NCBI GenBank assembly: GCA_020349905.1
Contig: CP070702.1
Location: forward strand, 1,900,047-1,964,046
Direction: 5' to 3'
DNA: 64,000 bases
Origin: Candidatus Eiseniibacteriota bacterium
Lineage (GTDB): Bacteria; Eisenbacteria; RBG-16-71-46; JAFGJU01
The notes under the pieces were generated by a model. That model was not told the origin of the DNA, ran no database searches, and worked only from the letters and a program-made list of their open reading frames with translations. Below, piece by piece: positions 24,645-43,349 of this stretch. Within the stretch, counting starts at the first letter, position 1. Each line of letters starts with the position of its first letter. Made by a program: the position numbers and the translations under genes.

Positions 24645-24852
24645 GTTTACCGAGCTTGATCTGGTCTAAGGGATTAGGGTTGAGCGGACGGTATGGCTTC
24701 GGTACTGCTGCGTTCCCACGAGAAGGGCAACCGGCACTCAGGTGAGCCACCGCCTGGGCCTCTTTTCGTCACTGGACTCATCAACCGGTGCAGATGCCAC
24801 CCCACTCATCGGGCTGGTGGCCGTGGAACAGCCCGGGTCTCGCCAGGACTGG

Positions 24853-25617: not shown

Positions 25618-26163
25618 CTACGATTGGTGCTTTCTGCGCATCTCGGCGTTGAAATCCTCTGACTTGCCGGGCGCAACACTCAGGCATCGCCACTGCCCTG
25701 ACCTGAAATGCTTACACAAGAACACGATCTGTCCAACGTGATACGCGCTGTGAGACAGGCTGCGGTCGATGGCCTTCACGACAGAATGAGGCTCTGCGCG
25801 AATCAGAACCGTTCTGCCCAAATCCTCCGGCGTGAGCGAAGCGAGTGCGTCGAAGGCGCAGCGCCAACCGGCTTCCCATCGATCGAAGAGCGCAGCCCTG
25901 TCTTCCGAAACCTCGATCCCGAACTCGCTGTCACGATCTCGGTCAGGCTTCTCGCCGTCAGAACTCAGGAAGTCCGTCCATCGAGAGCGCAAGTTTCCGG
26001 ACACATGTTTCACGATGACTGCAATGCTATTGTCTCCCTCGCCAACCGCAGCGAAGACCTGTTCGTCGCTGACCTGGGCCAGGGCGTCATCGGCCAGGGA
26101 CTTCAATTTGCGGAACTGGAGCAAAACGTCCGCCAAGTAGTCGGCTCCGAAAGAACTCTCCAT
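25618..26163 (-). CDS. DinB_2/DUF1572-like (DinB/YfiT four-helix-bundle) family protein
   Basis: Start placed at 'MESSFGADYLADVLLQFRKL'; 'HVSGNLRSRW' and 'HSAYHVGQIVFL' histidine motifs typical of DinB_2 metal-binding bundle. Confidence 0.5.
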   Translation of the reverse strand: MESSFGADYLADVLLQFRKLKSLADDALAQVSDEQVFAAVGEGDNSIAVIVKHVSGNLRSRWTDFLSSDGEKPDRDRDSEFGIEVSEDRAALFDRWEAGWRCAFDALASLTPEDLGRTVLIRAEPHSVVKAIDRSLSHSAYHVGQIVFLCKHFRSGQWRCLSVAPGKSEDFNAEMRRKHQS

Positions 26164-26439
26164 GGTTGGCTCCGGCTTCAGCAAGCAGCCTCTGGGTTCA
26201 GACATCCCACAAGGGGACTCGGAGAGCCACTCTTCCAAAAAATAGCTCCGCCTGGCCTCTCTGTCAAGCCGCGGATCTGGAGCGCAGCAGTGGATGTGTA
26301 ATCGCCAGCCTTCCTGGAGGGACGGGCACATCCGGCCGGAATAGCGGAGGCGTGGACCCAGATCTGGACAAGGTATCCTCACATCCGTGTCGCTGCCGAG
26401 GAGTTGATTGGAGAGGGGGACAAGGTGGTGGCGCGTCCG

Positions 26440-26793
26440 TCATTTCTTCAGAAAGCTCATGGCTTCGTCCAGTTCGGTGAACAGGCGTAGCGGAATGCCC
26501 CGGTTCTTAGCAACCGTTTCAAAGAACTCTGCATTCTTGTCATCGGGTTTTGCCAGGAGGGCAATCCTGGAGGAGGTGGGAAGCTGGATAGTGGATGCAA
26601 AGGAGTAGATGTCGAACGTGGACATGCTGAAGTCCATTTTCCGCATGTCGACCAGAACGTTCCGCGTCGGATCCTCTTCCAGAAGACGACGGACTTCCAG
26701 GCGCGTGTCTCCGAGTTGAGCCACGTCCACGGCCCCTTCAAAACGCAGCTCAACGACTCCGAGTTCGCTCCTGACCGTAATACTGAATGCCAT
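26440..26793 (-). CDS. Small STAS-like/anti-sigma-antagonist-like domain protein (117 aa)
   Basis: Start at ATG 26793 with GGGGAGG RBS; 'ITVRSELGVVELRFEGAVDVAQ...VLVDMRKMDFSMSTFDIYSFAST' resembles the STAS fold; no firm family assignment. Confidence 0.35.
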   Translation of the reverse strand: MAFSITVRSELGVVELRFEGAVDVAQLGDTRLEVRRLLEEDPTRNVLVDMRKMDFSMSTFDIYSFASTIQLPTSSRIALLAKPDDKNAEFFETVAKNRGIPLRLFTELDEAMSFLKK

Positions 26794-26964
26794 GCTTACA
26801 CCTCCCCGAGCACGTAGCCCGATTCGGAGACCGAATGGCACAGAATCACCGGCGGCTGCTCGTGAATGAATTGACTCTGAGTGTAAAAGCGACTCTCGTT
26901 CGTATGCCGCGGTCACCATACCTGTCCGCGGCACTGCTGTCAAGCAGGATGTGGAATTTCTGCC

Positions 26965-27804
26965 TCACGGCAAGTCTGCTGAGGAAATGTTTGCCCTGAA
27001 ATCCTCCCACATTGCTTTCACGCCGACCCCAAAGTGTTCCTGAAAGACGGGGGCAAAGGGCTCTCCGTCCTGCAGGTCAAGCAACAGTCTCCGAAAGGCG
27101 TCCGGCTTCTTGTTCCGGATGAACCCGACAAACATCTTGCTTTGCTTATGAAACATTAGAGGAGTTAGCCCTGCGGCGGCAACGGACTTTCGCACTGAAC
27201 CTGCAAAACTCCCCTTCTCCTCCACGACGAAGTGCCTTCCGCTCACTATGGAAGCTATCGCGACCTTGTCCGATATGCCCTCCCCACCACTCCCTGCAAG
27301 ACAGTTCGCGAGTCCTTCCGTGAGCCAGGAGGGTATTTCCCCCCGCCCAAGGAATCCGAGCTGCTGAGCCAGGTGCAGATGGGATAGTTCGTGGACCAGA
27401 GTTTCTCTGTGCGTGTCTCTCCCTTGGAAGTCGAAGGCGCTCGGAGCAACCAGCACGCTGCCCAGAACCGCGGTCCCTCTAATTGGATACAGTGAACGTT
27501 CCCCTACGAACTTGTTGTGACTCTCCTGCGTAGCGCACACGTATACCTTGAACGGCTTCTTGAAGTTTCTGAAGTGCCCTTCTTCCACGACCCTGATGGC
27601 CTGCGGAAGAAAACGAGCAATCTTCTTTGCCTCTGATTCGGCGCCGGGCTCGTACAAGACTGCGCGGTTCTCCCCACAGGGCACAAAGTGGCTCTTTGGC
27701 CTGAGAAGTGCGACTCCGACAGGACTTCTGACGAACGCTATCAAAGCGATTACGATAAGAAGCCCAACGAAACCCAGTATGACGGCGTGCTTTCTGAGTT
27801 TCAT
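26965..27804 (-). CDS. Membrane-anchored putative zinc metallopeptidase (HExxH)
   Basis: N-terminal TM 'AVILGFVGLLIVIALIAFV'; 'LVHELSHLHL' HExxH motif. Confidence 0.55.
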   Translation of the reverse strand: MKLRKHAVILGFVGLLIVIALIAFVRSPVGVALLRPKSHFVPCGENRAVLYEPGAESEAKKIARFLPQAIRVVEEGHFRNFKKPFKVYVCATQESHNKFVGERSLYPIRGTAVLGSVLVAPSAFDFQGRDTHRETLVHELSHLHLAQQLGFLGRGEIPSWLTEGLANCLAGSGGEGISDKVAIASIVSGRHFVVEEKGSFAGSVRKSVAAAGLTPLMFHKQSKMFVGFIRNKKPDAFRRLLLDLQDGEPFAPVFQEHFGVGVKAMWEDFRANISSADLP

Positions 27805-27966
27805 TCTCGATCACTGTCCTGTCTCAGAACCGTGGCACGGCACCCTCCCCCTGCCCAGCCCGCCGCGTCCCGGTCCGCTCAGACGGTAACCGACCGAACC
27901 TGACCACAAAGTAGGGGGTCGACTGGCCCGCACACCCGCGCCTCGGCTCCGCCAGACGGTAACTGC

Positions 27967-28260
27967 CTAAGCCCGGACCAGCGTCCAGATGCCGATGCAG
28001 ATGAAGCCGATGCCAGCTACGTAGTGCAGATGCTTTGCGCTTACGTACTGGGAGAGAGTGCTTCCGGCCAGGACTCCGATCCCAGATGCGACCATGAGCG
28101 CCAGTGAAGCAGCCACGAAAACTGTGAGCTTGCTGACCTGCTTGTTTGCGGCGAAAAGCAGCGTGGCAAGCTGTGTCTTATCCCCCAGCTCTGCCACGAA
28201 AACCGCTCCAAACACTGTCAGGAATACCTTGATGTCCATACGAATCCCCTCATCCGGCAA
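27967..28260 (-). CDS. UPF0016 (GDT1/TMEM165) family membrane protein, single-repeat form
   Basis: '[14 protein letters not shown]' E-x-G-D-K-T signature; 97 aa, 3 TM; 11-nt overlap with uvrA end. Confidence 0.65.
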
Positions 28261-31111
28261 CGGTCACGTCGGCCCCTACACCCACCACTTCTCTCAGCGC
28301 TTTACCGGTGTAAGAGCCTTCAGACGCGACTATCTCTTCGGGCGTCCCCGTCGCGACGACGCGCCCCCCATCGTCACCACCTTCGGGTCCCAGGTCGATG
28401 ATGTAGTCAGCTGCCTTAACAACGTCCAGGTTGTGTTCAATGACGATAACTGTATTCCCTGCCGTGACCAGACGATTGAGCACGCCCAGCAGAAGTCTTA
28501 CGTCGTCGAAGTGAAGTCCGGTCGTGGGTTCGTCCAGAATGTAAACGGTGCGCCCCGTTGCCACCTTCGAGAGCTCGGTCGCCAGCTTGACTCTCTGGGC
28601 CTCTCCACCGGACAGCCTCGTGGCCGGCTGACCCAACCTCAGATAGCCCAGGCCCACGTCCCTCAGGGCCTCCAGCTTTCTTCGCACAGGAGGTATCTGA
28701 AGAAAGAACTGATAGGCGGTCTCGATGGTCATATCCAGTACGTCGGCGATGCTCTTCCCTTTGTAAAGCACCTCCAGAGTCTCCCGGTTGTACCTCCTGC
28801 CGTCGCAGGTGTCGCATCTAACGTAAACGTCGGGCAGAAAGTGCATCTCTATCTTCACGACCCCGTCTCCGTGACACGCTTCGCAGCGGCCGCCGTGGAC
28901 GTTGAAGCTGAACCGCCCCGGCTTGTATCCGCGCACCTTCGACTCGGGAAGCTGCGCGAACAGCGACCTCATAAAGGTGAAGGCGCCCACGTACGTCGCG
29001 GCGTTAGAGCGCGGGGTGCGCCCAATTGGAGACTGGTCGATATCCACGACCTTATCGATGTGCTCCAGGCCCTTTATCGCCTTGTGCTCTCCCGGAGACT
29101 CCGTGGAGGAATAGAAGTGCCTCGCGAGGGCCCTATGGAGAATGTCATTCACCAGAGTGCTCTTTCCAGAGCCTGAAACTCCGGTCACGCACACGAAGAG
29201 TCCGAGGGGAAACGACACGTCGATGGACTTGAGGTTATTGGCGGCGGCGCCCCGCACGGTGAGATTTCCTCCCCGGGGTCGCCTCCTGGAACGCGGTACC
29301 TCCACGTCTTTCTTGCCCGAGAGATATAGCCCGGTCAGAGACTCGCTGTTCCCCGCCACGTCGCCCGGCAGGCCCGTGGCCACCACCCATCCACCACCCT
29401 CACCAGCGCCCGGTCCCAGGTCTATCACGTAATCCGCGGAGAGGATGGTGTCTCTGTCGTGTTCGACGACCAGGACGGTGTTGCCCATGTCTCTTAGCTC
29501 GAAAAGGGTGGCCAGAAGCCGTCTCTGGTCCCTGTGATGCAGGCCGATGCTGGGTTCGTCCAGAACGTAAAGGACACCGCTCAGCTTGGAGCCTATCTGG
29601 GTGGCCAGTCTCAACCGCTGCGCCTCGCCGCCTGCAAGGGTCGAGGCGCTTCGCTCCAGCGTGAGATAGTCCAGACCCACGTCACACAGGAACTTCAGTC
29701 GCTGCGAAATCTCTTTCAGAACGGGCTCCGCAACGGGAACTTCCCCGGCACGAAACTTGAGCTTCCCGAAAGCCTCGCGCGCTTCCTTCACAGAGACAGC
29801 CGCGAAATCTGCTATGCTCCGGCCCCCGACCCTCACGGCTAGACTCTCGGGTTTAAGTCTCCGCCCGCCGCACCCGGGGCATTGACCCGGAGCCATGAAA
29901 CCCTCTATCCACTCGCGCACTGCCTCCGAGGTCGTGGCGCGGTACCTGCGGGAGAGGTCGGCAACAACACCCGAGAACTTCGTTCTGTGCTTCACGGTGA
30001 ATTTGCGGCTCTTGTATGTGACGTCCAGTTCTTCCTTCCCCGTTCCGAAGAGAACGGCCCGCTTGGCCCGCTCGGGAAGGTCTTGAAACGGGGTATTCAG
30101 GTCGAACCCGTAGTGCCGCGAAAGCGCCCTCATCTGCGTGCTGAACCAGCCCTTGGTCACGGGACCCCAGGGAGCCACGGCACCGTCCTTGATGGAAACC
30201 TGCGCATCCGGAACCACGAGCGAGGGGTCTATCTCGAGCCGGCTCCCCAGTCCGTCGCAGACAGCGCATGCACCGTAGGGGCTGTTGAAGGAGAAGTTTC
30301 TGGGATTGAGCTCGTCGAAACCGATACCGCACTTCACGCAGGCTCTCTTCTCGCTGAACAGGAGTTGCTTCTTAGCGCCCACGAGCACGCTCACCGTACC
30401 CGAGGCTACACGGAGAGCGGTCTCGACCGAATCCGCCAACCGAGAGCGGTTCTTCCTGGCGGCCGTCAAACGGTCCACCAGCACTTCTATCGTGTGCTTT
30501 CTGGTCTTCTTCAGGGACTCGACTTTCTCCAACTCCACGAGTTCCCCGTCTATGCGCGCGCGCAGAAATCCCTGCCGCCTGGCCTGTTCCAATTCCTTCT
30601 TGTACTCACCTTTTCTGCCCCTGACGATGGGGGCCATTATCTGAACCGACTTGCCGAGCGCAGTCTCCAGCAAGGAATCTACTATCTGGGAGGGCGATTG
30701 GGCGCCGACGGGCGTGCCGCATTTATGGCAGTGCTGAACGCCGACGCGGGAAAAGAGAAGCCTGAGGTAGTCGTAGAGTTCGGTCACCGTGGCGACCGTC
30801 GAACGCGGGTTGGAACCTGCGGTCCGCTGTTCGATGGAGATTGCCGGGGAGAGCCCCTCTATGGAATCCACGTCCGGCTTCTCCATCTGTCCCAAAAACT
30901 GCCGGGCGTATGCCGAAAGGGACTCGACGTAACGCCTCTGCCCTTCCGCGTAGATAGTGTCAAAGGCAAGTGAGCTCTTGCCCGAGCCGCTCACTCCGGT
31001 AATGACAACGAGTGAGTTTCGAGGGATGCTCGCGTCTATGTTCTTGAGATTGTGTTCCCTGGCTCCCTTGACAAGAATGAAACCGGGAGAGGAGCCAGGA
31101 AAAGTCTTCAC
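28250..31111 (-). CDS. uvrA: Excinuclease ABC subunit A
   Basis: Two ABC ATPase modules ('[20 protein letters not shown]', second Walker A '[13 protein letters not shown]'), zinc-finger cysteines; start set to GTG 31111 ('VKTFPGSS...[12 protein letters not shown]'), which overlaps the upstream TGA as GTGA. Confidence 0.92.
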
Positions 31112-34100
31112 CTCGAGAGTCTCTGAAGCCTTTCTCTTGCCATGCTTCCCCACTGCGAATTCTCCCCTTCCCTTTCCAGCAGGATCGTGTATTGCTTGGC
31201 CGCGGCCTCCACGTCTCCGGACTGTTCGAACGCCATCCCTGCCTTGAAGCGAGCAGTCACCGCCCACAGAGAGCCTTCTCCATAGAGAAACGGAACCTTC
31301 AGAAACTCCGAAGCCGCCCTCTCGAACTCTCCCATCGCGGCGTGGGCCTCGCCCAGCCAGTACTGAATCTCGGGCTTCTCCTCTCCCTCGGCCGTCTCAA
31401 GCGCCTGCCTCAGTTTCTCGATCGCCCGACGGTGACGTCCAGCGTTCAGGTCGCAGTACCCGCTCTTGAACGCCGCGGCGCGTGCCTGCTCACCCGTGCA
31501 TCCGGTTCGTATCTCCTCATACAGGGAAGCGGCTTCGGACCACTTCTCCGCCCTTTCGAGACAGAGGGCGGAATTTGACCAGGCGTCGCAGCGGCTCGTG
31601 GCGTCGGAGGCCACCCGCGAGGCGTCCAGATAGGAACGAGAGGCCTCCAGGTACCTGGATTGCGCGTAGAGAGACGTACCCAGTTTGAAATGCGCTGTGA
31701 AATTCAGTGTGCTGTCCGAAGAGGCCAGCTTCACGGCCTGCCCGAAATGGGCGGACGCAGCAGCGAAATCGTTCTGCCGCAGCTTGGAGAGCCCCATCGT
31801 AACAAGCGCCTTCTTCCTTGGCTCTCCCCGCAAGCCTCCGAGTGCCTCTGCCAGACGCGCGTGCGCTCCGGCCATATCGCCGGCCTCGTACAGAGCCAGG
31901 CCCCTCTCCAGAGCCAGCTCCGAAGCCAGAGTAGTATCTGAGGGGAAGCTCTTCACGAACTCCCCGAGCCGTTTCTGCGCCTTGGAGTCTTCTCCAAGCT
32001 TGGCAAGGGACAGCACGATCCTGCGCGCCGCCTCCCGATGCGAGGCCTGGCCCCTGGTCAATGCCAGCGCCCGCTCGTAGGCCTCGAGGCTCGAGGAGAA
32101 ATCTCCCGATTCAAAGCTCGCCCGGCCGAAAGAGAGCATTACCGTGGAATCCGAACGCACCTCTGGAAACTGTTTAGCCAGCCCTGCGTAGGTGACGGCG
32201 GCCTTGCCAGACTCTCCGACCCGCGTTTCGACGCCGGCCTTCCTTATGAGAACGTCTCTGAGCAGCGGACTCCCCGGGAACTGCGCGGCGAGACGTTCCA
32301 CGGGAACAGACGCCTCTTTCAGCATTCCTCTGTCCAGATACGCCCTGGCTTCTCGCGCGAGCAGGTCGTCCGCGAACGGACCGGTGGGATCGTGTTTCAG
32401 AATGTACTCGTACTCTGCGACGGCCTTTTCCAGCTCCCCGCTTACCAGATGGCAATCTCCCCTCCGGGAAAGGGCCCTCTCCCTGAGGATTCGTGTTCTG
32501 CCATTCTGGAAGGCAAACGAGTAGAGTGAGATCGCTCTGTCGAGGTCCCTCCTCGCAAGCTTGCACTCTCCGAGCTCGTATGCCGCCTCGGCAGCAGCAG
32601 GGCTCTCTGAGTAACGCGACACGACTATCTCCAGCTCCCGCTCCGCCGCGTCCAGGTTGCCCGCCTTGCGCAACAAGTATCCCCTCCCGAGCCGGGCCCC
32701 GGCCAGCAGCGGGCTGTCAGGGAATTCGTCGATGAGTTTCTGATAGCTGGCCATGGCCTCTGTGTAGAGTTCGTCGCCCGCGGTACCCGACAGCTCAGCC
32801 AGGGCCTGAGCTCTCCGGAGAAGAGCCGCTTCAAACCGGTCGGTGTCAGGGAAGCCCTGCAGAAAATCCGTATACAGAGACACGGCCGCTCTGTGCTTCT
32901 GAGGGGGATTGAGCTCTGAAAGCTCCTCTTCTATGAGTGCCATTCTGGCGTCGTCCGCCAGCTGGGTCCTGCCGTATTGAGTAAGAAGGTCCCTCAGGTA
33001 CCGGAGCGCCAGACCCTTGTGCTTCGCGGCGTCCTTTCTCTCACCCTCGAAGGCAAGCTTCCTCGAGAGCAGATTGTGCACGTTGGCCAGTCTCCAGAGC
33101 AGCAGGTGCTTTCTGTCCGCAGGAGAGCTCAGCATGGCCTTCGTGAGCATGACCTCGGCCTCGTCGAAGGAACGCAGCCTGCTCTCGAAGAGGATCGCCG
33201 CTTGCTCGAGCAGCCTTTCGCCGGCCACAGAGCCCTCGGCCGCGGACATCAGAAGAACTCGCAGCCTCTGCAAGTCCTCCTTTCCCACCTTCGCGGGAAA
33301 GAGCATTTCTAGGAGGCTTGCTCGCTCCGCGGCCTCGTCCGCTCTTGGACTCAGAGGGAAATCGCGCGCCAGCCTACGGTAGGCCCCCGCGGCCTCGGAG
33401 TACTCGCCGAGGGTTTCGTGAGACCTGGCCAGCTCCCAGACAGCCGGCTCCACACTTTCCGATTCCGGATAGAGGTCAGCAAGCAAGGTGTAATAGGCCG
33501 CGGCCCGTCCTCTCCCAACTGTCTCCTCTGTGCGGGCCTCGGCTCCGGAGAGACGGGCCAGCCGCATGAGGGCAGTGGCGCGGAGCTCGTCCGGACCGGG
33601 CAGTGTCAGCGCCCGCAAATAGGCAGCCACGGCCCCTTCCCTGTCCTCGAGCTCCTCTCTCACCATACCTTCTTCGATACTCACGAAGAGACAAAGGGAA
33701 TCCGCACGCCCGACACACTGTATCTTCTCGAGAAAACCTAGCGCGTCCCTGAGCGCATTCCGAAAGCGCGCGGCACGCGCGCGCGTAAAAAGAGAGGCAC
33801 GCTGCGCCGCCTCCGTGGCCCCTCTCGAAAGCAACTTCTCCGCCAGCAGGTTCGCCTGGCCGTACTCCCCCGCTGCAAGAAACGCGGACTGGGCTCTCAG
33901 ATTGCACTCTTCCGAAAGGAGAGAATCGGGAGACAACCGAGCGCATTCGGAGTAGGCCACCGCCGCGTCTGCGGTTCGCCCCATGCTGTCAAGCAGGCGC
34001 GCCTTCTCAACCAGGGCCTCGCTCAGGAGCTCCTTTCCAACTTTGAACGACAACGCCTCGTCTAGCACGCCCAGAGACCCGAGAGTGTTCCCCTCGGCCT

Positions 34101-34764
34101 GGAGCAGGCGGGCCAGCTCCACGGACCCCCTGAAGGCGGCTTCGCTACCGCGATGAGCCTTGCGCAGGAGTTCAAACGTGCTCCTGGCCCTGACCGCATC
34201 CGTTCGGGTGAGCGTGGAACCCAGAAGATACAGCAGCTCCGCTTTCCACTCGTCATCCGCGCAGAGAGCCAGTCCTCTTTCGAACTCCTTGGCCGCCTGC
34301 ACCGGGTCACCGCGCTCCACGAAGCTGAGACCCACGTTGCGAAGAGCCGCACAGAATCGCGGGCACTCCGGGAAGCGTGCCACGACCTGGGAGAAGGTCG
34401 AACCTGCCTCCCTGTGACGACCCAGTTTCACCTCGCATCCGCCGGCCCTGTACAGGGCCTCGCAGGCCCTTTCGCCGCGCGGGTCGGCCTCGTAGGCCCG
34501 AAAGTAGAGCCGTTCAGCTTCCGCGAACTGCGAAAGGGAACTCCTTATGTCTCCCAGAAGAAGAGTGGCGTGCTGGCGAGACTGCGGAGAGACGTCGCCC
34601 TCCAGGAACCTCTGCAGTTCCTCCTGGGCAGGTTGGAGCATCCCGTCTTCGATCAACTTCTCGGCGTAGTCCAGCTCCCGGGGACCCGAAGGAGTCGCTG
34701 ACTGTGGACCATACACTATTGCTGCAATCGCAATACTAACAATCAATAGTGCGCGTTTCTTCAT
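31108..34764 (-). CDS. Very large (1218 aa) secreted/periplasmic tetratricopeptide-repeat protein
   Basis: Signal peptide '[19 protein letters not shown]'; TPR-like 34-aa units along the whole length (A/L/Y/G/E periodicity). Confidence 0.8.
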
Positions 34765-34780
34765 CTTACTTCTAAAGTCC

Positions 34781-36016
34781 TCATTCGTACCTGAGGGCCA
34801 CGACCGGATCCAACCTCGATGCCTTCACCGCCGGGTACATTCCGAAGAAGAGCCCGACCGCAGACGAGAAGGCGAAGCCCAGGGCCAGGGACCAGAAGGG
34901 CGCCGCCGAGGGGATGTGCACTAGCTTCTCGACCAGCCAGCCGATGAAAACACCGATGGCGATACCGATGACCCCACCGGTGGCTGTGAGAACCACTGCC
35001 TCCGTCAAGAACTGTACCATGACGTCTGTTCTGCGGGCGCCCACCGCCATGCGGAGGCCTATCTCCCTGGTCCTCTCGGTGACGGACACGAACATGATGT
35101 TCGTTACACCCACCCCTCCGACCATGAGTGCGATGGAGGATATGGCTATCATCACGATGTAGAAGGTCCCGGTTATCCTGTGGTAGAGGTCCATGAGAAC
35201 GTCCTCGGTGAAGACGGCGAAGTCCTCTCCGCGGTTCGCAGGGATGCCTCTCCTGCGCCTCATGAGTTCGGTTATCTCCTCTATTGCCTGCTCGGTCGCC
35301 TCCACGGTCACCGGCTTCGCATCCACGAATATCTGCAGGTCGGGTCCGAACCTCTTACCCAGGGTCGAGTGGGGCATGATGACGAAATCATCCAGGCTCT
35401 GCCCCAGGAAATTGCCCCGCTTCTCCAGCTCTCCGACGATGAGAAACCGCTTCCCCCCGATGGAAACCCAGCGTCCCACGGAGGAGGTGTGAGGAAAGAG
35501 CGTCTCCAGAAGCTCCTGTCCCATGACGCACACGTCCGCACTGTGGAGCACCTCTTCCTCTGTGAAGCACCGGCCGCTCGAGATGCCCAGCTCGTGTATC
35601 TCCAGGTAGTCGGGTGCGCTCCCCAGCACCTGCGTGAGCCGGGTTTCCCTGTCCCTGTATTTCAGAGGGACCGCCGTGAAGTTGAGGGGAACAGCCGCCT
35701 TGACAGAGGGACACAGCCTCTCGATGGCGACGGCGTCCTCTACGCTGAAATCTCTCCTGTGACGCAAGCTCTCCGGAAGAGAACCCACGAACAGGCCGGG
35801 CTCGAACTTCCTGACGTACACCACGGACGTGCCCAGCGAGCGAATCTGCCTCGCCATGCTGCGGTTGAGCCCCTGGACCAGGGATACCATTCCGACGACC
35901 GTCGTAATGCCGATGACGACGCCCAGAATCGTCAGAATGGCTCTCAATTTGTGGGTCCAAAGCGAAGAGAGAGCCATCACCATGCTCTCCCTCAGAAGTC
36001 CTGTTCGTAGTCCCAT
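34781..36016 (-). CDS. ABC transporter permease, FtsX/MacB/LolCE family
   Basis: Four TM with large periplasmic domain between TM1 and TM2, C-terminal 'RTREIGLRMAVGARRTDV' FtsX signature; start set to ATG 36016. Confidence 0.8.
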   Translation of the reverse strand: MGLRTGLLRESMVMALSSLWTHKLRAILTILGVVIGITTVVGMVSLVQGLNRSMARQIRSLGTSVVYVRKFEPGLFVGSLPESLRHRRDFSVEDAVAIERLCPSVKAAVPLNFTAVPLKYRDRETRLTQVLGSAPDYLEIHELGISSGRCFTEEEVLHSADVCVMGQELLETLFPHTSSVGRWVSIGGKRFLIVGELEKRGNFLGQSLDDFVIMPHSTLGKRFGPDLQIFVDAKPVTVEATEQAIEEITELMRRRRGIPANRGEDFAVFTEDVLMDLYHRITGTFYIVMIAISSIALMVGGVGVTNIMFVSVTERTREIGLRMAVGARRTDVMVQFLTEAVVLTATGGVIGIAIGVFIGWLVEKLVHIPSAAPFWSLALGFAFSSAVGLFFGMYPAVKASRLDPVVALRYE

Positions 36017-36041
36017 CGATGCTCCGATCCCGTGCGCCAGG

Positions 36042-37268
36042 CTACTCGTAGCGCAGCGCAACTATCGGGTCAAGTTTCGCGGCCCTTGCCGCGGGATAAA
36101 TGCCGAAGAACGTCCCCACACCACACGCCACCGCCAGACCCATCAGTATTGCCCAGGCCCGGATGGCGGCGGGCAGCGGGCTCACACCCGAGACGAACAG
36201 GGCGATTGCCACGCCCAGCAGCACCCCGATCAGACCCCCCGTGCCTGAAAGAATCAGCGATTCGATGAGAAACTGGACCATTATCTCTCCGCGTCTGGCA
36301 CCGATGGCCTTCCTTATGCCTATTTCTCTGGTCCTCTCCGTGACAGAGACCAGCATTATGTTCATTATCACGATTCCGCCCACGATAAGGGAAATTGCGG
36401 CGATTCCCACGGTGACCAGGTACGCCGTGGAAGTGAAGCTCCTGTATAACTCCATGAACGTCTCGGCGCCCATGATGCTGAAATCGTCGGGCTCGGAAAA
36501 AGGTACCTTCCTCCTGGCCCTCAAGACGGCCCTGGTCTCATCCTGTGCAAGATCGTAGCTGGCCTGGTCGCGTGCCTTCACGACCAGGTACACGGGGTTC
36601 CTCGTACCGTAGGCCTTCCTGAATGCCGAGATGGGAACGGTGACGTAACTGTCCTGGCTCATCCCCAGGAGACTACCCTTCCGCTCGCCCACGCCCACGA
36701 TTCTGAACCTGTGCCTCCCTGCTCTGATTTCCTTCCCGATCGGGTCCACCCCGGTGAATAGCTTGTCTTTGACATCCTGACCGATTACGCATATGGCCTT
36801 CCTTCGGAGCACGTCTTCGCGTGAGATTTCCCTCCCTGATTCCACACCGACCGCCTCGCCCGATTCGACGAATCGATACTTCTCGTCCACCCCCTGCACG
36901 TTCACCCCGGAGACGCTCTTGGCTCGGTAGCGCACGGTCTTCTGGGTCTCGGATACGGCTCCTGCAGCAAGAACAGAGGGGGAAAGCCGCTCCACGGCCC
37001 GGGCGTCCTCGGGTGTGAAGTCTTCCCTCTTGAGGGCCTCCAGATACTCCTCGTAATCGGTTATCATCCCGAATTTGTCGACGTAGAAAGTGTTGGATCC
37101 CTCGGCCACGAGCCTCTCTGAGACGTACTCGTTCATGCCCTCGATGATAGACACGATGGTCACGACGGACATGACGCCTATCACCGTGCCCAGCACCGTG
37201 AGAAGAGAACGAACCTTGTGCACACCAAGGGTGGAGACTGCTATCCGGAAGTTCTCAGAGAGCTGCAA
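36042..37268 (-). CDS. ABC transporter permease, FtsX/MacB/LolCE family (second paralogue)
   Basis: Same architecture; 'RTREIGIRKAIGARRGEI'. Confidence 0.8.
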   Translation of the reverse strand: MQLSENFRIAVSTLGVHKVRSLLTVLGTVIGVMSVVTIVSIIEGMNEYVSERLVAEGSNTFYVDKFGMITDYEEYLEALKREDFTPEDARAVERLSPSVLAAGAVSETQKTVRYRAKSVSGVNVQGVDEKYRFVESGEAVGVESGREISREDVLRRKAICVIGQDVKDKLFTGVDPIGKEIRAGRHRFRIVGVGERKGSLLGMSQDSYVTVPISAFRKAYGTRNPVYLVVKARDQASYDLAQDETRAVLRARRKVPFSEPDDFSIMGAETFMELYRSFTSTAYLVTVGIAAISLIVGGIVIMNIMLVSVTERTREIGIRKAIGARRGEIMVQFLIESLILSGTGGLIGVLLGVAIALFVSGVSPLPAAIRAWAILMGLAVACGVGTFFGIYPAARAAKLDPIVALRYE

Positions 37269-37286
37269 GACTCACCCCCGCAGTCT

Positions 37287-37970
37287 TCAGACAAGTTCGT
37301 CGGCCTCGATCAGGCCGTCCCTCAACCTGATGATGCGCCTTGCGTGCTTTGCTATGTACTCTTCGTGTGTTACCAGGACGATGGCGTTTCCGGCTCTGTG
37401 AATCTTCTCCATGGCCTGCATGATTTCCTCGCCCGTCTTGCTGTCGAGGTTGCCGGTAGGTTCGTCGGCGAGTATCACGGAAGGCTCGTTCACGAGCGCC
37501 CGTGCGATCGCTGCGCGCTGTCGCTGGCCGCCGGAGAGCTCGGAAGGACGGTGTCTGGTTCTGTCCTCGAGCCCGACGGCCTTTAGAGCTGCGTCCACCT
37601 TGGTCCTTCTCTCGGCCCGTGAAACACCAGCATAAATGAGGGGGAGTTCTACGTTGTGGGAAGCGTCGGCCCTGGGAAGAAGATTGAAGGTCTGGAAGAC
37701 GAACCCTATCTCCTTGTTCCTTATCCGCGCCAGTTCGTCGTCCGAGAGGTCTTTGACTTCCTGGTCCTTGAAGCGATAGGAACCGCTCGTGGGAGTGTCG
37801 AGACAACCGATGAGGTTCATCAGCGTGGATTTGCCCGAGCCCGAAGGCCCCATGATGGCAAGGTACTCGTTTGAGGTCAGGTCCAGGTCTATTCCGTTCA
37901 GCGCGTGCACCTCCTCCGCGCCGACCTGGTACACCTTCGTCACGCCCCTAAGTTCTATGAGATTGTCCAT
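37287..37970 (-). CDS. ABC transporter ATP-binding protein (MacB/LolD-type)
   Basis: Walker A '[10 protein letters not shown]', signature '[15 protein letters not shown]', Walker B '[11 protein letters not shown]'. Confidence 0.9.
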
Positions 37971-37996
37971 CCGTTCTCCTGTATTGAGCGAGTCTG

Positions 37997-39409
37997 CTAG
38001 TCGCTCTCTTCGTCTCGCCCCTCACCCTCTCCCTTCTTCTCCTTCTTCTCTTCTCTTATGCGCTGACCGTCTTTCAAATCTCTCAACACCCTGAAAGGAC
38101 CCGTTACCACGCGGTCTTCTTCAGAGAGACCCTCCAAAATCTCTACCTCCGTCTCACTCATTATGCCTGTCTTGACAGGCACGAACTTGGCCTTCTCTTC
38201 CTCCACGGTAAAGATACCCGTTATTTCCTCGACCTTCTCTTCCTCAGCGGTTGACACGGAGTCAGCCGCCTCCGCCTCCGGCTTCTCGCCCGCACCCGCT
38301 TCTACATCTGTCGTCTCGTCGGCCGCGGAATCCGGCTCTTCACCGGCCGTCTTCTGTTTCGTCCCGTCCCTCTTCTTTCCCAGCTTCTTGTCCTTGTCGC
38401 GCTCTGATATCCACTTCTCCACGGTCTTCTTCTCTCGCACTACGATGGCCTGGATAGGGACCTTCAAGGCGTCGGTGTGAGTTGCGGTTTCTATCTCGGC
38501 GTCCGCGGTCATCCCGGGCTTCAGATTCTCTATCCCGGGCTCAAGCGTGAGCTTGACCTCGAAGTCGGTGGCGGTACCTTCGGCACCTGCCGACGCTCGC
38601 TTTCCGGAACTGCCTATTTCCACGACGGTCGCCTCGAAGACGGTGTCCGGAAACGCGTCAACGAAGATCTTGGCCTTCTGTCCCTTTCTCACGCTGACCA
38701 CGTCGGTCTCGTCCACCGCACATTCCACCTGCATGTGCGCCAGGTCCGCCACGGTCATTATGACGGTGCCGGGGACGTTCATCGTACCGACGACCACGAT
38801 CTCACCTTCTTCGACGTTGAGCTCGGAGACCACGCCGGACTGAGGAGCAACAAACGTCGTCTTACTCAGGTTGTCTTCCGCTATGTTGAGAGCAGCCCTG
38901 GCCTCGGCAATCCTCTCTGCCGCGGCCTCAACCTCCGCCTCCTGAACGTCGTACTGAGTCCTTGCGGCCTCGAGCTCCTCGTCCGAGGCCAGACCCCTTT
39001 CAGACAGGGCCTTCTTGCGTTCGTAGACAGACCTGATCTGTTTCAATGAGGCCACGGCAAGTCGGTGGCTGGCTTCGGCGGTTCTCAGCGTGGCCCGCCT
39101 CTGCTCCACCTGCGCCAGATACTCTGACTTGTCCAGCTGCAGCAGCAGCTGACCCTGCTCGACGGGGTCTCCTTCCTTGACCGCAAGGTTCACTATCTCG
39201 GCGGGCACGCTGGCGCTTATCTGCACCTCCTTCTCAGGTCTTATGCTGCCGGGGGCACGCACGGTCGAAGTTATGCTGCCGACGCTAACGTCTGCTGCCT
39301 GGATCTTAAGGCCCTTATCAGAACTGCGCCCCATGTTCCCAAGGACGATCAGCAGCACCACGGCCGCGACCCCTCCCACAATCAATATGATCTTACGCTT
39401 TCGACTCAT
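37997..39409 (-). CDS. HlyD/MacA-type periplasmic adaptor subunit with an acidic low-complexity insertion
   Basis: N-terminal TM anchor, long coiled-coil hairpin ('[20 protein letters not shown]...'), lipoyl/beta-barrel segments; ~75-aa D/E/K-rich insertion before the final membrane-proximal domain. Confidence 0.8.
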
Positions 39410-39436
39410 ATCTACTGCGCCTCCGTTACAGCACCG

Positions 39437-40798
39437 CTAATGGACCGGCTCTCCCGTAGCTTTCTCGAGCAACGCTTCGGCCACTCTGAGGCTCGCCAGC
39501 GCCTCCACGTGAGAATTCCTGGCCCTGGAAAGACTTACCTCGGCGTCAAGCAGCTCCAGCATTGTTCCGGAACCCACGTCGTATCTCTCGCGCGAAAGCC
39601 TGTAGTCCTCCTCCGCGCTTTCCAATCCGCTCTTGGAAGCCGCGATCCTCCTCGTGGCCTCTTCGAGTATCAGCAGGGCCTCCTTGACTTCCAGGGCCGC
39701 CTGCAGCTCCGTATCTCTAAGCTGGTTTTCGGCCATCGCCGCACGCGCGGTGGCCTGCCGGATACCGGCACTAGTGCTCAGACCGTCGAATATGGGTAGG
39801 TCGACGCCCAGTCTCACGTTCCATGCGTAGTTCTTACTGTGAGAATCCCAGGTTTCGGGAAAGGTGTTGTCCGACCAACTGTATTGCAGGCTGGAATAGA
39901 GGCTCGGAAATCTGGCTGCCTTGGAAGCGAACCTTGACGCGTTGGCTCCCTTCAGGTCCTCCCTGGCAGCCAGCACGTCCGGCCTGCGCTTCAGTGCGAG
40001 AGACAACGGTGCCTCCACCTCCACGCCAGGCAACTCCGCCCCGAGGTCTTCCACTATCTGAATTGGAGTATCCACCGACAACCCCATCAGCTTCGCCAGC
40101 CGTGAGCGCTCCAGCTTCACCCTGTTCTCAGCAGCGATCAACTCCAGCTCGCTCTGCGACACGCGCACCTTCGCTTTGAGAACGTCTCCCTTCGCCACGG
40201 AGCCCACCTCGAACATGGCGTTGGCCCTGCGCAACTCGTCCTGGCTGAGTTCCATGGCCGCCTGGCTCACTTCTGCGAGCTTCGTCGCCTTCAGAAGTTC
40301 GTAGAACTGTGCCTTGACCTGGTAGGCCACCGACTGTCTCGCCAGCTCCAGAGAATAGCGAGCGGCCCGGACGGAATGGTTCGCGCTGGAGACGTTGGCC
40401 CAGTCCCTGACGTTCAGGAGATTTTGGGTTGCCTGGATGTTGTACGAATAGGTGTCGGAAGAGAGCCTGTCGGTTTCGAACGTCCAGTCGAACTCCGCCA
40501 CATAGAATTCCTGAGGGCCCTGGATGCGCCTAGCGAAACTGCCGCCGGAACTTACGTGGGGAGCAAAACTGCTGATTGCTCCGAGCTGGGCCCCCTCCGA
40601 CTCCCTCACGCCTTCGCGCGCGTTGATGATGGAGAAGTTCCTGCCCAGCGCTATGTTCACGCAGTCCCGGACGGTGAGCGGACCTTCTGGCAACGAGGAA
40701 TCTAAAGCCGGCACAGCCCCCGCCAGCCCTGACGAGACAATCCCACACGAGAGAATGAACAGAGAGAGGAATACGGAAACGCGCACTCTAAGGCACAT
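39437..40798 (-). CDS. TolC-family outer-membrane efflux channel
   Basis: Two internal repeats with coiled-coil/beta segments; start set to ATG 40798 (MCLRVRVSVFLSLFILSCG, AGGAGG RBS 7 nt upstream). Confidence 0.8.
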   Translation of the reverse strand: MCLRVRVSVFLSLFILSCGIVSSGLAGAVPALDSSLPEGPLTVRDCVNIALGRNFSIINAREGVRESEGAQLGAISSFAPHVSSGGSFARRIQGPQEFYVAEFDWTFETDRLSSDTYSYNIQATQNLLNVRDWANVSSANHSVRAARYSLELARQSVAYQVKAQFYELLKATKLAEVSQAAMELSQDELRRANAMFEVGSVAKGDVLKAKVRVSQSELELIAAENRVKLERSRLAKLMGLSVDTPIQIVEDLGAELPGVEVEAPLSLALKRRPDVLAAREDLKGANASRFASKAARFPSLYSSLQYSWSDNTFPETWDSHSKNYAWNVRLGVDLPIFDGLSTSAGIRQATARAAMAENQLRDTELQAALEVKEALLILEEATRRIAASKSGLESAEEDYRLSRERYDVGSGTMLELLDAEVSLSRARNSHVEALASLRVAEALLEKATGEPVH

Positions 40799-40921: not shown

Positions 40922-41722
40922 CTACCTCTGCATGAGCGCCCCAACCGCGGAGCTGCCCAGAAGCCAGATCACCCAGAGGACACCCACGGTATAGTATGAC
41001 TTGGGCCTCGAGAACTTGAAGATGACGGAGAGCCCGATGGCTAGAAGGATAACCTCCCACACGTTGAACACGTCGACCTGAGCCAGGAAATTGTATGAAA
41101 AGCGCTGCCCGAAGCCGGCCCCCGGTTCTGGAGAGGAAACGAGCAGGCCCAGACCGGCATGCACTTGCGTGGTCTTCTTAATCAGCTGAAGCGGCACCTT
41201 GACTATGGCGCCAGGCAGAATGACCATGGCCGCGTGAGCCATGACGGAAAAGGTCCTGGAGAAAGTCGACTGCCCGCCCAGAATCAGAGCACACACAAAA
41301 TGCAGAACCGCCGCCACCACAAGGACCGCAAGAGGGATCAACACAACCGGACTCAATACGGCAAGGAAGAACATGATCTTGCTGTCGAAGAACTGAGTCG
41401 CCCTCTCGAGTTGCTCCTCGGTCATTCCCTGCTGTTCGAACCGCTTCTCCATCTGCTCCCGCTGCTCGGGAATCGTGACGGGAGTGAAGATGATCCAGGA
41501 GCTGATTGCGGTAACCAACACACAGATGAGCAGCGGGGCCAGCCAACCGGGACGCTTATCGAGCGTCTGGAAGACTTCGGTAGGGGAAAAGAGAACGCGT
41601 ATCGCTCTTCCTAAGGATTCACCCATGCCCCCGGTCCCCTCCTCTCTGAGGCCAGTTCCAGTGAGGTCACTCATCGTATCCTCCTTGTCTGCGTGGTCGC
41701 ACGTTCCCACACGGCTTGCCAC
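40922..41722 (-). CDS. Yip1-domain membrane protein (start uncertain, possibly internal ATG near 41626-41674)
   Basis: 'LGRAIRVLFSPTEVFQTL' followed by five TM helices in Yip1/DUF1282 arrangement. Confidence 0.55.
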   Translation of the reverse strand: MASRVGTCDHADKEDTMSDLTGTGLREEGTGGMGESLGRAIRVLFSPTEVFQTLDKRPGWLAPLLICVLVTAISSWIIFTPVTIPEQREQMEKRFEQQGMTEEQLERATQFFDSKIMFFLAVLSPVVLIPLAVLVVAAVLHFVCALILGGQSTFSRTFSVMAHAAMVILPGAIVKVPLQLIKKTTQVHAGLGLLVSSPEPGAGFGQRFSYNFLAQVDVFNVWEVILLAIGLSVIFKFSRPKSYYTVGVLWVIWLLGSSAVGALMQR

Positions 41723-41740: not shown

Positions 41741-41781
41741 CCCCAGAAAACTCAAAGAGGCAGTGTGACACCCACACTGCC
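41741..41781 (-). terminator. Putative rho-independent terminator after tonB
   Basis: 9-bp perfect stem GGCAGTGTG/CACACTGCC with 5-nt loop followed on the minus strand by TCTTTGAGTTTTCT. Confidence 0.45.
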
Positions 41782-41859
41782 CCGTTCATCTCAGGTCGCT
41801 CGATTCCCCAAGCTGACACTCGCCGGCTGCTTGACCAACGGGCGCCTACGTCCCGTCTC

Positions 41860-42477
41860 TCAGTCAAGGGTGAAGCGGAAGGGAATGACAATCCTACACT
41901 TCACGGCAACGTCCCGCTGTTTTGCGGGCTTGAAGAGGAACTTCTTAGCAGCCTCCAACGCCGCCTGGTTGAGACTCTCTATCGTGTCGCTGGCCACCAC
42001 GCGGGCGGATATCACTCGACCGGTTTCGTCGATTGTCACCTCTACCTGGACAACTCCCTCCGCCTCGGCCTCAGACGCAAGCTCTGGATACTGGGGACTC
42101 ACGCTTCTTATCACCTGGGGCGGCGAGTCGTAAGCGAAAAAGACCTCCGGCATGTCGGGCTGCGAAGGGATGACGGGGGGCTCAAAGGGGTTGAACTCCG
42201 TAGGGGCGATCGTTTCCTCTTCGCTGACGTCGTCCGATATCTCGGCTTCCTGGGGAAGCTGAGGCCGTTCTATCTCCTCGGGAGGCGGCGGAATCTCTAT
42301 GTTGTCAGGCAGATTCAGAACCTCCATCTTCCGCTCCTTCAAAGTGTAAGGACGCGGCACGTAAGGAGGCGAAAAGTAGAAGATTGCAGCGTGGATGAGC
42401 ACCGCGCCGGCCAGCGCCACCTCCAAATACTTGGTGTACTTCTTCTTAAACATGGCGTTCGCCGTAGGACTCATCAT
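41860..42477 (-). CDS. tonB: Energy transducer TonB
   Basis: N-terminal TM, proline-rich spacer 'PPPPEEIERPQLPQE', C-terminal TonB domain 'GVVQVEVTIDETGRVISARVV...VIPFRFTL'. Confidence 0.8.
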   Translation of the reverse strand: MMSPTANAMFKKKYTKYLEVALAGAVLIHAAIFYFSPPYVPRPYTLKERKMEVLNLPDNIEIPPPPEEIERPQLPQEAEISDDVSEEETIAPTEFNPFEPPVIPSQPDMPEVFFAYDSPPQVIRSVSPQYPELASEAEAEGVVQVEVTIDETGRVISARVVASDTIESLNQAALEAAKKFLFKPAKQRDVAVKCRIVIPFRFTLD

Positions 42478-42893
42478 CGTTCCTTCCCACCTCCTGTCTT
42501 CTTGGGGGCCGTGAAGGAAACTCGCAACGCATTAGCGTTCTTCAAGTACTCCATGGCGTCAGAAACCACGCTGTACGGACATCTCGTGTCCGTGTTGAAG
42601 GCAACTATGAGCGAGGGATTCCTGCTCAACTTGTCGGCAATGATGGGCTCGATGTCGGGAAGTGAAATCAGGTTATCATCGATGGAAACACTTCCGAGGG
42701 CATCGATCCATATCCGCGCGGAGTTCTCCCTCGGAACCTTCTCTCCGGCCTCCGAGCGAGGAAGCCTGACGGGGAGGCCTGCCTCCATCCGAAAGATAAC
42801 CGTGGACATGAAGAATATCAGGAGCAACATCGCAATGTCGCCCATCGAAGCCGTCGGAATCCGGCTCGCAATTCTCAGTCTTCGTCCTGCCAT
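42474..42893 (-). CDS. exbD: Biopolymer transport protein ExbD/TolR
   Basis: Single TM 'IAMLLLIFFMSTVIF' then ExbD periplasmic domain; 4-nt overlap with tonB. Confidence 0.85.
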   Translation of the reverse strand: MAGRRLRIASRIPTASMGDIAMLLLIFFMSTVIFRMEAGLPVRLPRSEAGEKVPRENSARIWIDALGSVSIDDNLISLPDIEPIIADKLSRNPSLIVAFNTDTRCPYSVVSDAMEYLKNANALRVSFTAPKKTGGGKER

Positions 42894-42920
42894 TTGACAA
42901 TACTCCTGCCGGGATTACCG

Positions 42921-43328
42921 CTAGTCCGCTTTCAAGGCTCGCAAGGAGAATCGGGTCGCATTGGCCAGTTTGAGCTGGTCCAGCACACTAACCATGACCC
43001 CGTATTCACATCTCGGATGTGTCTCGAGAGAGATAACCAGCTTGTCGTTTTCGGCTATCCTCATCCTCACCTCATCCTCGATGTCCTCGATCGCGATGGG
43101 CTGCTTATCGATCGTGACATTCCCATACTCGTCCGCCACGATACGGGCAACGTTCTTCACGTTGACTTTCACTATCTTCGACCCCTTGGTCGGAAGAAGA
43201 ACGGTGAGTCCCTCCTCCATGCTGAAGACAGTGGTGGCGATGAAGAATATGAGAAGCAGGAACGCCACGTCCGCGGTCGAGGCCAGCGGAATCTCCGGCG
43301 CATCTCTCTTTTTCTTCTTGAATACCAT
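42921..43328 (-). CDS. exbD: Biopolymer transport protein ExbD/TolR (second copy)
   Basis: 'VAFLLLIFFIATTVF' TM and ExbD domain. Confidence 0.85.
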   Translation of the reverse strand: MVFKKKKRDAPEIPLASTADVAFLLLIFFIATTVFSMEEGLTVLLPTKGSKIVKVNVKNVARIVADEYGNVTIDKQPIAIEDIEDEVRMRIAENDKLVISLETHPRCEYGVMVSVLDQLKLANATRFSLRALKAD

Positions 43329-43349
43329 TGGCTCTAGCCCTCTACGTCT

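Follow-up and report, generated by a model that had tools for sequence, protein, structure and literature searches.

Tripartite exporters of the MacAB-TolC type, from E. coli, Acinetobacter, and Aggregatibacter, have the NBD fused to the N-terminus of a permease that acts as a homodimer. YknWXYZ, the SDP toxin exporter of Bacillus, combines a Yip1-family membrane protein with an adaptor, a MacB-type permease, and a free-standing ATPase. Spr0693-0694-0695 of S. pneumoniae and DevBCA-HgdD of Anabaena, with its paralogues, are split MacB-like pumps that have a separate NBD, an adaptor, and one permease gene; the Anabaena system also has a TolC-like outer-membrane factor (OMF). LolCDE is built from a single ATPase gene and a pair of paralogous type VII permeases; it lacks both adaptor and OMF and partners with LolA. 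Reviews have already covered split NBDs, heterodimeric type VII permeases, and the accessory protein YknW (PMC5985334, PMC8277102).

The pump described here shares features with each of these systems. As in MacAB-TolC, both permeases carry the MacB periplasmic core and the FtsX four-helix domain, with MacB as their best match, the adaptor most closely matches MacA, and the operon includes a gene for a TolC-like OMF; unlike in that system, the NBD is separate, the permeases are two paralogues (39.6% identical to one another), an extra Yip1 membrane protein is present, and all equivalog scores of the pump fall under their cut-offs. Components resembling those of YknWXYZ are also found, together with YknX-specific Pfam families on the adaptor orthologues (Beta-barrel_YknX and YknX_C, detected on the orthologues only) and a PDB match to the YknZ periplasmic domain, but the arrangement here is that of a diderm, adding a TolC-like OMF and a second permease gene. 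The Spr and Dev pumps differ in their single permease, and the DevC, DevB, and DevA models score far under cut-off here. LolCDE has the same formal count of ATPase and permease genes, although its sequence models are unmet.

We analyzed a 64-kb window (64,000 nucleotides) from a Candidatus Eiseniibacteriota MAG; the literature searched yielded nothing specific to efflux systems of Eisenbacteria. Every gene named in the initial annotation was found, and these genes indeed form a tightly packed, co-directional string on the minus strand, with gaps of 27, 26, 18, 25, and 16 nt from the OMF through the adaptor, ATPase, permease A, and permease B to a giant TPR protein gene. With Pfam E-values of 1e-20 to 1e-64, these cannot be chance ORFs. 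The gene list itself was incomplete, in that the pump unit opens with a Yip1/YknW-like gene that had been missed. Upstream of it on the same strand lie ExbB (43350-44192; Pfam MotA_ExbB), two ExbD genes (42921-43328 and 42474-42893; Pfam ExbD), and TonB (41860-42477; Pfam TonB_C). Between the TonB stop and the Yip1 start we located a terminator-like hairpin (41757-41783, minus strand) with an 11-12 bp stem and a T-rich tail (12 pairs, 7 of them GC; centroid -20.3 kcal/mol, z = -2.65). The ExbB-ExbD-ExbD-TonB genes (41860-44192) are a neighboring TonB-system operon outside the pump transcript, and they also precede the pump in six relatives (L001-L003, L015, L020, and L021). GC3 is even over the pump, the TPR gene, and the backbone, so recent horizontal transfer of the pump is unsupported. 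The window contains no further FtsX or MacB-type permease.

The first gene of the pump unit (40922-41674, minus strand; SD AAGGAGG) encodes a 250-aa Yip1-domain membrane protein resembling YknW, with 67 bits to Pfam Yip1 (cut-off 28.6) and 78.8 bits to NCBIfam YknW_fam, under the cut-off of 110. This gene also lies upstream of the pump in relatives; the order here is Yip1-OMF-adaptor-NBD-permease, and many metagenome loci likewise have Yip1 ahead of adaptor and permease genes. The TolC/NodT-like OMF (453 aa; 39437-40798, minus strand) starts at the ATG at 40798, with AGGAGGG just ahead, and carries a signal peptide along with a putative lipobox (ILSC); it scored 217 bits to Pfam OEP, 170 bits to TIGR01844 (cut-off 225), and 137 bits to TIGR01845. 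The periplasmic adaptor (470 aa; 37997-39409, minus strand), of the HlyD/MacA-like group and similar to MacA and YknX, contains an acidic low-complexity insert at residues ∼335 to 400. It exceeds the cut-off of the RND_mfp subfamily model TIGR01730 (157 versus 94.9 bits), and MacA is both its top equivalog (126.7 bits, cut-off 342) and its top PDB match (97 bits). The free-standing ATPase of the MacB-NBD/LolD/YknY type (227 aa; 37287-37970, minus strand) gave 119 bits to Pfam ABC_tran, and its best NCBIfam match was the N-terminal half of MacB, at 262 bits.

Permease A (408 aa; 36042-37268) and permease B (411 aa; 34781-36016), both on the minus strand, consist of MacB_PCD (132 and 140 bits, respectively) and FtsX (78 and 73 bits) domains. 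Permease B starts at the ATG at 36016, which yields the 411-aa length seen in relatives, and not at the ORF-maximal TTG at 36061. The two proteins scored 188 and 222 bits to the MacB model NF007826, and three full-length MacB structures aligned with them end to end at 156 to 191 bits (E ∼1e-54); the Spr0695 structure (5xu1_M) scored 147 to 152 bits. The initial annotation had named clustering with DevC and the heterocyst glycolipid exporters as a competing outcome, and no such kinship emerged: the DevC model reached 20.8 bits for permease A and did not match permease B (cut-off 290), and the DevB and DevA models gave 54.8 bits (cut-off 129) and 198.9 bits (cut-off 295.8). Permease B has 6751 database relatives at E ≤ 1e-60, and every related metagenome locus that shows both permease genes has the A-type paralogue first and the B-type second. 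The split heterodimeric layout, with a free ATPase and two paralogous permeases, is widespread, and being standard in those loci it carries no special meaning. The earlier description of the pump as MacAB-TolC-like, its ATPase being a separate protein and its two permeases distinct, is supported; judged by its sequence matches, the pump is a common split exporter of the MacAB-TolC/YknWXYZ type.

The protein encoded downstream (1218 aa; 31108-34764, minus strand) has one N-terminal hydrophobic segment, either a signal peptide or an anchor, and no other hydrophobic stretch. An AlphaFold2 model of its 1200-aa mature part (mean pLDDT 88.4) was all-alpha, and ∼64 helices forming ∼32 TPR-like repeats account for the protein, with no other domain. 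That it is exported or membrane-anchored and contains TPR-like repeats only, as had been proposed, is borne out by hydrophobicity, homologue N-termini, and domain searches. Pfam and NCBIfam returned TPR families together with YbgF/CpoB modules in four stretches; the 213 bits to TIGR02795 arise only as a sum over these four repeated stretches. In a PDB profile search, designed TPR proteins came first, and CpoB, YbgF, and BamD were among the matches. Foldseek against the PDB retrieved generic long TPR scaffolds (IFT-A, Ski3, Ctr9, and OGT) at TM-scores of ∼0.2 and yielded no functional lead.

CpoB/YbgF proteins are ∼260 aa long, carry a coiled coil at the N-terminus and a single TPR domain at the C-terminus, and are encoded in the tol-pal operon. 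The protein studied here resembles CpoB/YbgF, BamD, and TtpD-type proteins in its TPR_6/YbgF-type modules and periplasmic export, but it is ∼5 times longer, has no coiled-coil trimerization domain and no lipobox, and its closest orthologues adjoin uvrA, not tol-pal. Identity with CpoB/YbgF itself was rejected, given a continuous 1218-aa solenoid encoded between the pump and uvrA rather than in a tol-pal operon. We also rejected PorW/SprE of the T9SS (PorW 64.9 bits, cut-off 250) and a BamD/PorW-type lipoprotein, the signal region being devoid of cysteine and the 101.7 bits to BamD covering two partial stretches. Most likely, the protein is a general scaffold of the envelope, built from repeats of the CpoB/YbgF/BamD type. 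A profile of the mature part recovered 96 cluster representatives at E ≤ 1e-30, most of them ∼1,200 to 1,240 aa long. When the alignment was scanned against genome contigs, two loci only were found, on a short Eisenbacteria contig and in an Anaerolineae bin, the latter encoding a 1752-aa protein of different architecture.

The gene that follows is canonical uvrA (953 aa; 28250-31111, minus strand), with 1468 bits to NF001503 (cut-off 1147) and the UvrB-interaction and DNA-binding insertion domains (PF17760 and PF17755). Because the canonical equivalog is passed and the UvrB-interaction domain is present, a drug-resistance UvrA of the UvrA2/DrrC type was rejected. The reported overlap of the TPR stop codon (TGA, 31110-31108) with the uvrA start (GTG, 31111-31109) in the motif GTGA is real and recurs in relatives; overlap or close abutment was seen in L001, L003, L004, L008, L014, and L092. 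An in-frame GTG at 31153 has a better SD, yet homologue N-termini and the gene calls of relatives (953 aa) favor the start at 31111.

We compared the neighborhood among metagenomic fragments whose taxonomy was deduced from a few MAG names, and the pump-TPR string proved to recur in one set of loci and to be absent from another. The order pump-TPR-uvrA was present in all eight loci with at least 72% permease B identity and readable downstream sequence (L001-L003, L008, L010, L011, L014, and L015, with L001, L002, and L015 being near-identical copies), and the adjacency persists in this clade down to ∼50% TPR identity. At 45 to 55% permease B identity, the pump runs straight into uvrA with no TPR gene at the locus in 13 of 13 loci with readable downstream sequence (L017-L022, L024-L029, and L031), across gaps of ∼25 to 190 nt; these loci also have ExbBD-TonB-Yip1 ahead wherever the contig extends far enough. 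None of the loci at ∼40% identity has a TPR gene downstream. Conversely, TPR-uvrA-gcvTHP without the pump occurs in two remote lineages, L004 (TPR protein of 1222 aa, 25% identity) and L092 (1223 aa, 27% identity end to end). L004 is collinear with the window on either side of the missing ExbB-to-PermB cassette, sharing DUF4388, a 632-aa TPR gene, and AsnRS upstream and uvrA and gcvTHP downstream. The occurrence of pump without TPR and of TPR-uvrA without pump indicates that TPR-uvrA, embedded in a collinear backbone, is the old conserved unit and that the pump is a lineage-specific neighbor. The pump-uvrA tie that had seemed odd reflects an old TPR-uvrA-gcvTHP backbone block, and the proposal that the TPR protein is a component of the pump was not supported by the comparison. 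From synteny it follows that the adjacency can do without the TPR protein, not that an interaction is absent.

The initial annotation had favored a Lol-like machine, and a divergent LolCDE-like lipoprotein extractor would share the count of one ATPase gene and two permease paralogues, with the ATPase reaching 233.4 bits to the LolD model TIGR02211. That score, however, is under the cut-off of 307.75; the LolCE model TIGR02212 gave 49.0 bits for permease A and 29.3 for permease B against 362, the LolC and LolE exception models gave at most 28 bits, and the E. coli LolC and LolE chains were absent from the PDB matches of the permeases, among which LolF reached only 26 bits, over the C-terminal FtsX domain. 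The permeases match MacB instead, and the cognate adaptor and OMF encoded alongside are efflux-pump features. We regard a Lol-type extractor as extremely unlikely, the family scores effectively refuting such an identity. It is also quite unlikely that in this lineage the TPR protein assists the MacB-type pump in the periplasm, as an accessory or as a scaffold that handles cargo, making up a seven-component envelope export machine. The 16-nt gap between permease B and the TPR gene, the absence of a terminator consensus from it, and the adjacency in the ≥72% clade speak for such a role, and type VII ABC systems are described with periplasmic partners such as EnvC, LolA, and TesA; the orthologous pump of the next clade nevertheless lacks the TPR gene, as do the loci at ∼40% identity, the TPR orthologues of the two remote lineages keep uvrA without a pump, and in some members of the ≥72% clade the gap is 104 to 181 nt, long enough to accommodate a separate promoter. 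Permease B and the TPR gene are only 13 to 16 nt apart in the window and its closest relative, and neither a terminator nor a promoter consensus was found between them, so co-transcription, and hence some functional association in this lineage, may exist.

The TPR protein could instead be a scaffold of a Tol/Ton-type motor, multi-CpoB or TtpD-like, serving the upstream ExbB-ExbD-ExbD-TonB rather than the pump, an assignment that we consider unlikely. Its CpoB/YbgF-type modules and the PDB matches to CpoB, YbgF, and BamD are compatible with this role, Foldseek also matched, at a low TM-score, the periplasmic TPR scaffold belonging to the flagellar stator of Campylobacter, and five of the seven remote giant-TPR relatives inspected (P0014, P0015, P0016, P0017, and P0019) are co-directionally upstream of MotA_ExbB-ExbD (TolQ/ExbB-ExbD) genes, with a PD40 TolB-like protein also present in P0015 and P0016. 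A precedent is Vibrio TtpD2, an essential TPR protein encoded by the last gene of the tonB2 operon (PMC6957404). Against it, the closest positional orthologues, L004 and L092, have no ExbB or ExbD within 10 kb, six pump genes and the terminator-like hairpin lie between the TonB operon and the TPR gene, and TPR-TPR similarity of 20 to 27% identity is weak evidence of orthology. There is, further, a slim chance that either the TPR-uvrA coupling, which extends down to 25 to 27% TPR identity, represents genuine co-regulation of an envelope scaffold with nucleotide-excision repair, or the TPR protein has been recruited as the periplasmic partner of the MacB-type pump in the clade of the window.

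We consider it probable that three separate units stand side by side, that their juxtaposition is lineage-specific, and that the TPR protein is no obligate component of the pump. The ExbB-ExbD-ExbD-TonB operon, ended by the strong hairpin, would be the first. The second would be a six-gene tripartite exporter composed of the Yip1/YknW-like protein, the TolC-like OMF, the MacA/YknX-like adaptor, the free ATPase, and the two MacB-type permeases. If it works as MacAB-TolC and YknWXYZ do, the permease A/B heterodimer would be driven through mechanotransmission by a dimer of the ATPase, and a periplasmic or outer-leaflet substrate (perhaps a peptide, toxin, or lipid-like molecule) would be pushed through the adaptor and the TolC-like duct, while the Yip1 protein may modulate the adaptor. 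The older third unit would pair the gene for the ∼1,220-aa periplasmic TPR solenoid with uvrA, at the head of a TPR-uvrA-gcvT-gcvH-gcvP1-gcvP2 block. In this lineage, the pump lies directly upstream of that block, 16 nt away, and given so short a gap transcription from the pump promoter probably continues through TPR and uvrA.

The string of pump, giant TPR gene, and uvrA is therefore best described as a widespread split MacB-type exporter beside an older backbone block. This result should stop the string from being read as a new envelope machine and has little import beyond annotation. If true, either co-regulation of the scaffold with uvrA or recruitment of the TPR protein by the pump would be a new accessory relationship for uvrA or for a type VII ABC system. 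YknW-like Yip1 proteins accompany TolC-containing MacB-type pumps in uncultured diderm phyla, and Eisenbacteria-like genomes possess a length-conserved family of ∼1,220-aa TPR proteins that is tightly coupled to uvrA.

Twelve co-directional genes occupy the minus strand of the window from 44192 to 28250. They comprise ExbB, ExbD, ExbD, and TonB (41860–44192), a YknW-like membrane protein with a Yip1 domain (40922–41674), a TolC/NodT-like outer-membrane factor (OMF; 39437–40798), a MacA/YknX-like adaptor (37997–39409), a free ABC ATPase (37287–37970), two permeases of MacB_PCD+FtsX architecture that share 39.6% identity (PermA, 36042–37268; PermB, 34781–36016), the 1218-aa TPR protein (31108–34764), and a canonical uvrA (28250–31111). 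The intergenic gaps from the OMF gene to the TPR gene are 27, 26, 18, 25, and 16 nt, and the TGA stop of the TPR gene overlaps the GTG start of uvrA (GTGA). The initial annotation had described the genes and this overlap correctly; it had missed the Yip1 gene and a terminator-like hairpin between TonB and Yip1, and its interpretation of the string as a Lol-like extractor with the TPR protein as a subunit was not supported by the analyses below.

The hairpin (41757–41783, minus strand) is strong, with an 11–12 bp stem, a T-rich tail, and a centroid energy of −20.3 kcal/mol, and lies past the TonB stop and ahead of the start codon of Yip1. Combined with the Shine-Dalgarno motif (AAGGAGG) that comes after it and precedes Yip1, it marks Yip1 as the gene that opens the pump unit. 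The hairpin thus forms a boundary between the ExbBD-TonB and pump operons, though both clusters travel together in relatives. The 16-nt gap between PermB and the TPR gene contained no terminator consensus, so in this lineage the pump transcript probably extends through the TPR gene and uvrA, and the GTGA overlap makes translational coupling of these two genes plausible. An in-frame GTG at 31153, 42 nt upstream of 31111, is preceded by a better Shine-Dalgarno motif (AAGGGGAG, 8-nt spacing); the N-termini of UvrA homologues favor 31111 as the start.

Profile searches and sequence searches of the PDB were used to place the pump. The MacB equivalog model gave the two permeases 188 and 222 bits, three full-length MacB structures (Aggregatibacter, Acinetobacter, and Escherichia coli) aligned with them end to end at 156–191 bits, and Spr0695, a split permease of Streptococcus pneumoniae, scored 147–152 bits. 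The LolCE model, which has its cut-off at 362 bits, gave 49 and 29 bits, the DevC model gave 21 bits for one permease and no match for the other, and neither permease retrieved the E. coli LolC/LolE structures in the PDB search. The ATPase was nearest to the MacB nucleotide-binding domain and scored under the LolD cut-off; MacA proteins were the top matches of the adaptor, and YknX-specific Pfam families were found on its orthologues. By these scores both permeases are MacB-type, which together with the sub-threshold LolCE and LolD results effectively rules out the proposed Lol-like extractor. We thus classify the pump from its sequences as a relative of MacAB-TolC and YknWXYZ of the diderm kind, with MacB-type permeases, a MacA/YknX-like adaptor, a TolC-like OMF, and a YknW-like Yip1 protein. 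By analogy with those systems, the pump is expected to use an ATPase dimer that drives a PermA/PermB heterodimer by mechanotransmission; a periplasmic or outer-leaflet substrate would be expelled through a hexameric adaptor and the TolC-like duct, with the adaptor modulated by the Yip1 protein. This adaptor carries a long acidic low-complexity insert (residues ∼335–400) and a K/E-rich C-terminal tail, and its orthologue in one metagenome locus (L002) is longer still (525 aa). The signal peptide of the OMF ends in ILSC, a possible lipobox, which would suggest a NodT-like lipoprotein rather than a non-lipidated TolC-type protein.

The split two-permease layout is not unusual: PermB matched 6751 database proteins at E ≤ 1e-60 and the A-type permease preceded the B-type in every locus showing two permease genes among the 79 metagenome loci recovered with PermB; several of these 79 also have a Yip1 gene ahead of the adaptor. 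Reviews of type VII ABC transporters already cover separate nucleotide-binding domains and heterodimeric permeases, and they present YknW as a fourth part of the MacB-like pump in Bacillus (PMC5985334, PMC8277102). In six loci (L025, L026, L028, L031, L067, and L068) the permease pair is doubled in tandem (A-B-A-B) behind a single ATPase gene, giving four MacB-type permease genes per operon.

The TPR protein has a single N-terminal hydrophobic segment with no lipobox found in its N-terminus, and its relatives have typical signal peptides. AlphaFold2 (12-sequence alignment) predicted a confident all-alpha solenoid (mean pLDDT 88.4) that, as modeled, has about 64 helices in ∼32 pairs and no other domain. 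Sequence models identified repeated YbgF/CpoB-type and BamD-type TPR modules; PDB profile matches were generic TPR proteins plus CpoB, YbgF, BamD, and LapB, and Foldseek returned generic long TPR scaffolds. An exhaustive phmmer search yielded 96 cluster representatives at E ≤ 1e-30, mostly of 1,190–1,260 aa and many aligned end to end at 21–30% identity, the named members coming from Eiseniibacteriota and Latescibacterota MAGs; by these alignments the protein belongs to a length-conserved family. A role as a Tol/Ton-motor scaffold is a reasonable secondary hypothesis because co-directional MotA_ExbB-ExbD genes lie downstream of five of the seven remoter relatives inspected (∼950–1,200 aa; a 1752-aa relative of different architecture in L009 was set apart) and Vibrio TtpD2 offers a precedent (PMC6957404). 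The other two relatives lack such genes, and a large PD40 (TolB-like) protein is also near two of the five. Against this role, MotA_ExbB-ExbD genes are missing from the surroundings of the closest positional orthologues. Distant multi-YbgF TPR proteins of ∼950–1,060 aa are upstream of MotA_ExbB-ExbD in L005, L007, L090, L006, and L091, accompanied by a 1,240–1,718-aa PD40 (TolB-like) protein in L005 and L007 and by a SPOR-domain protein in L006 and L091, an arrangement that may represent an uncharacterized Tol-like gene cluster.

Comparative synteny revealed three states. Pump, TPR gene, and uvrA were contiguous in all eight loci with PermB of ≥72% identity (L001–L003, L008, L010, L011, L014, and L015), a count covering readable downstream sequence and including near-identical copies (L001, L002, and L015). 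At 45–55% PermB identity (L017–L022, L024–L029, and L031; names, where given, mostly Candidatus Eisenbacteria), uvrA directly followed the last permease gene of the orthologous pump after ∼25–190 nt in 13 of 13 loci, TPR-family sequence was absent from all 13, and ExbB-ExbD-ExbD-TonB-Yip1 preceded the pump where the contig was long enough. Two loci with remote TPR orthologues retained the order TPR-uvrA-gcvT-gcvH-gcvP1-gcvP2 with no pump found within 10 kb upstream of the TPR gene: L004 (P0007, 1222 aa, 25% identical) and L092 (a 324-kb contig; P0167, 1223 aa, 27% identical end to end). On both flanks the gene order of L004 matches that of the window, with DUF4388/PatA_N, a 632-aa TPR protein, and AsnRS upstream and uvrA followed by gcvTHP downstream; all that is missing is the ExbB-to-PermB cassette. 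At ∼40% PermB identity the downstream genes were unrelated housekeeping genes (EF-G-like and frataxin-like, from translations judged by eye).

Among relatives with PermB of 50–90% identity, where the contig reaches, the ExbB-ExbD-ExbD-TonB genes stand directly ahead of the Yip1-led pump in both pump-bearing clades (including L020, L021, and L001–L003), and the TonB system and pump are missing together in L004, a pattern of cassette-like co-inheritance. On the plus strand at 45940–48907, the genes for a 639-aa TPR protein and for DUF4388/PatA_N diverge from AsnRS, a trio kept in remote L004 and thus part of the same backbone collinearity. The minus-strand region 24640–28250 holds additional genes between uvrA and gcvT, namely a DinB/DUF1572 protein (25618–26382) and two ORFs with no Pfam match (26440–26943 and 26965–27804). 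They are absent in L004, L020, and L092, where gcvT follows uvrA within 85–790 nt, and look like a lineage-specific backbone insertion.

By the comparative synteny, the TPR protein is not an obligate part of the pump. The hard linkage to uvrA that the initial annotation had singled out is real, and overlapping stop and start codons or close abutment are seen again in L001, L003, L004, L008, L014, and L092; the linkage involves the TPR gene and the backbone rather than the pump, and is a curious, probably non-functional synteny. Together, the three states indicate that TPR-uvrA is a conserved old unit heading the block that continues into the gcv genes, and that the pump is a neighbor whose position relative to this block varies between lineages.
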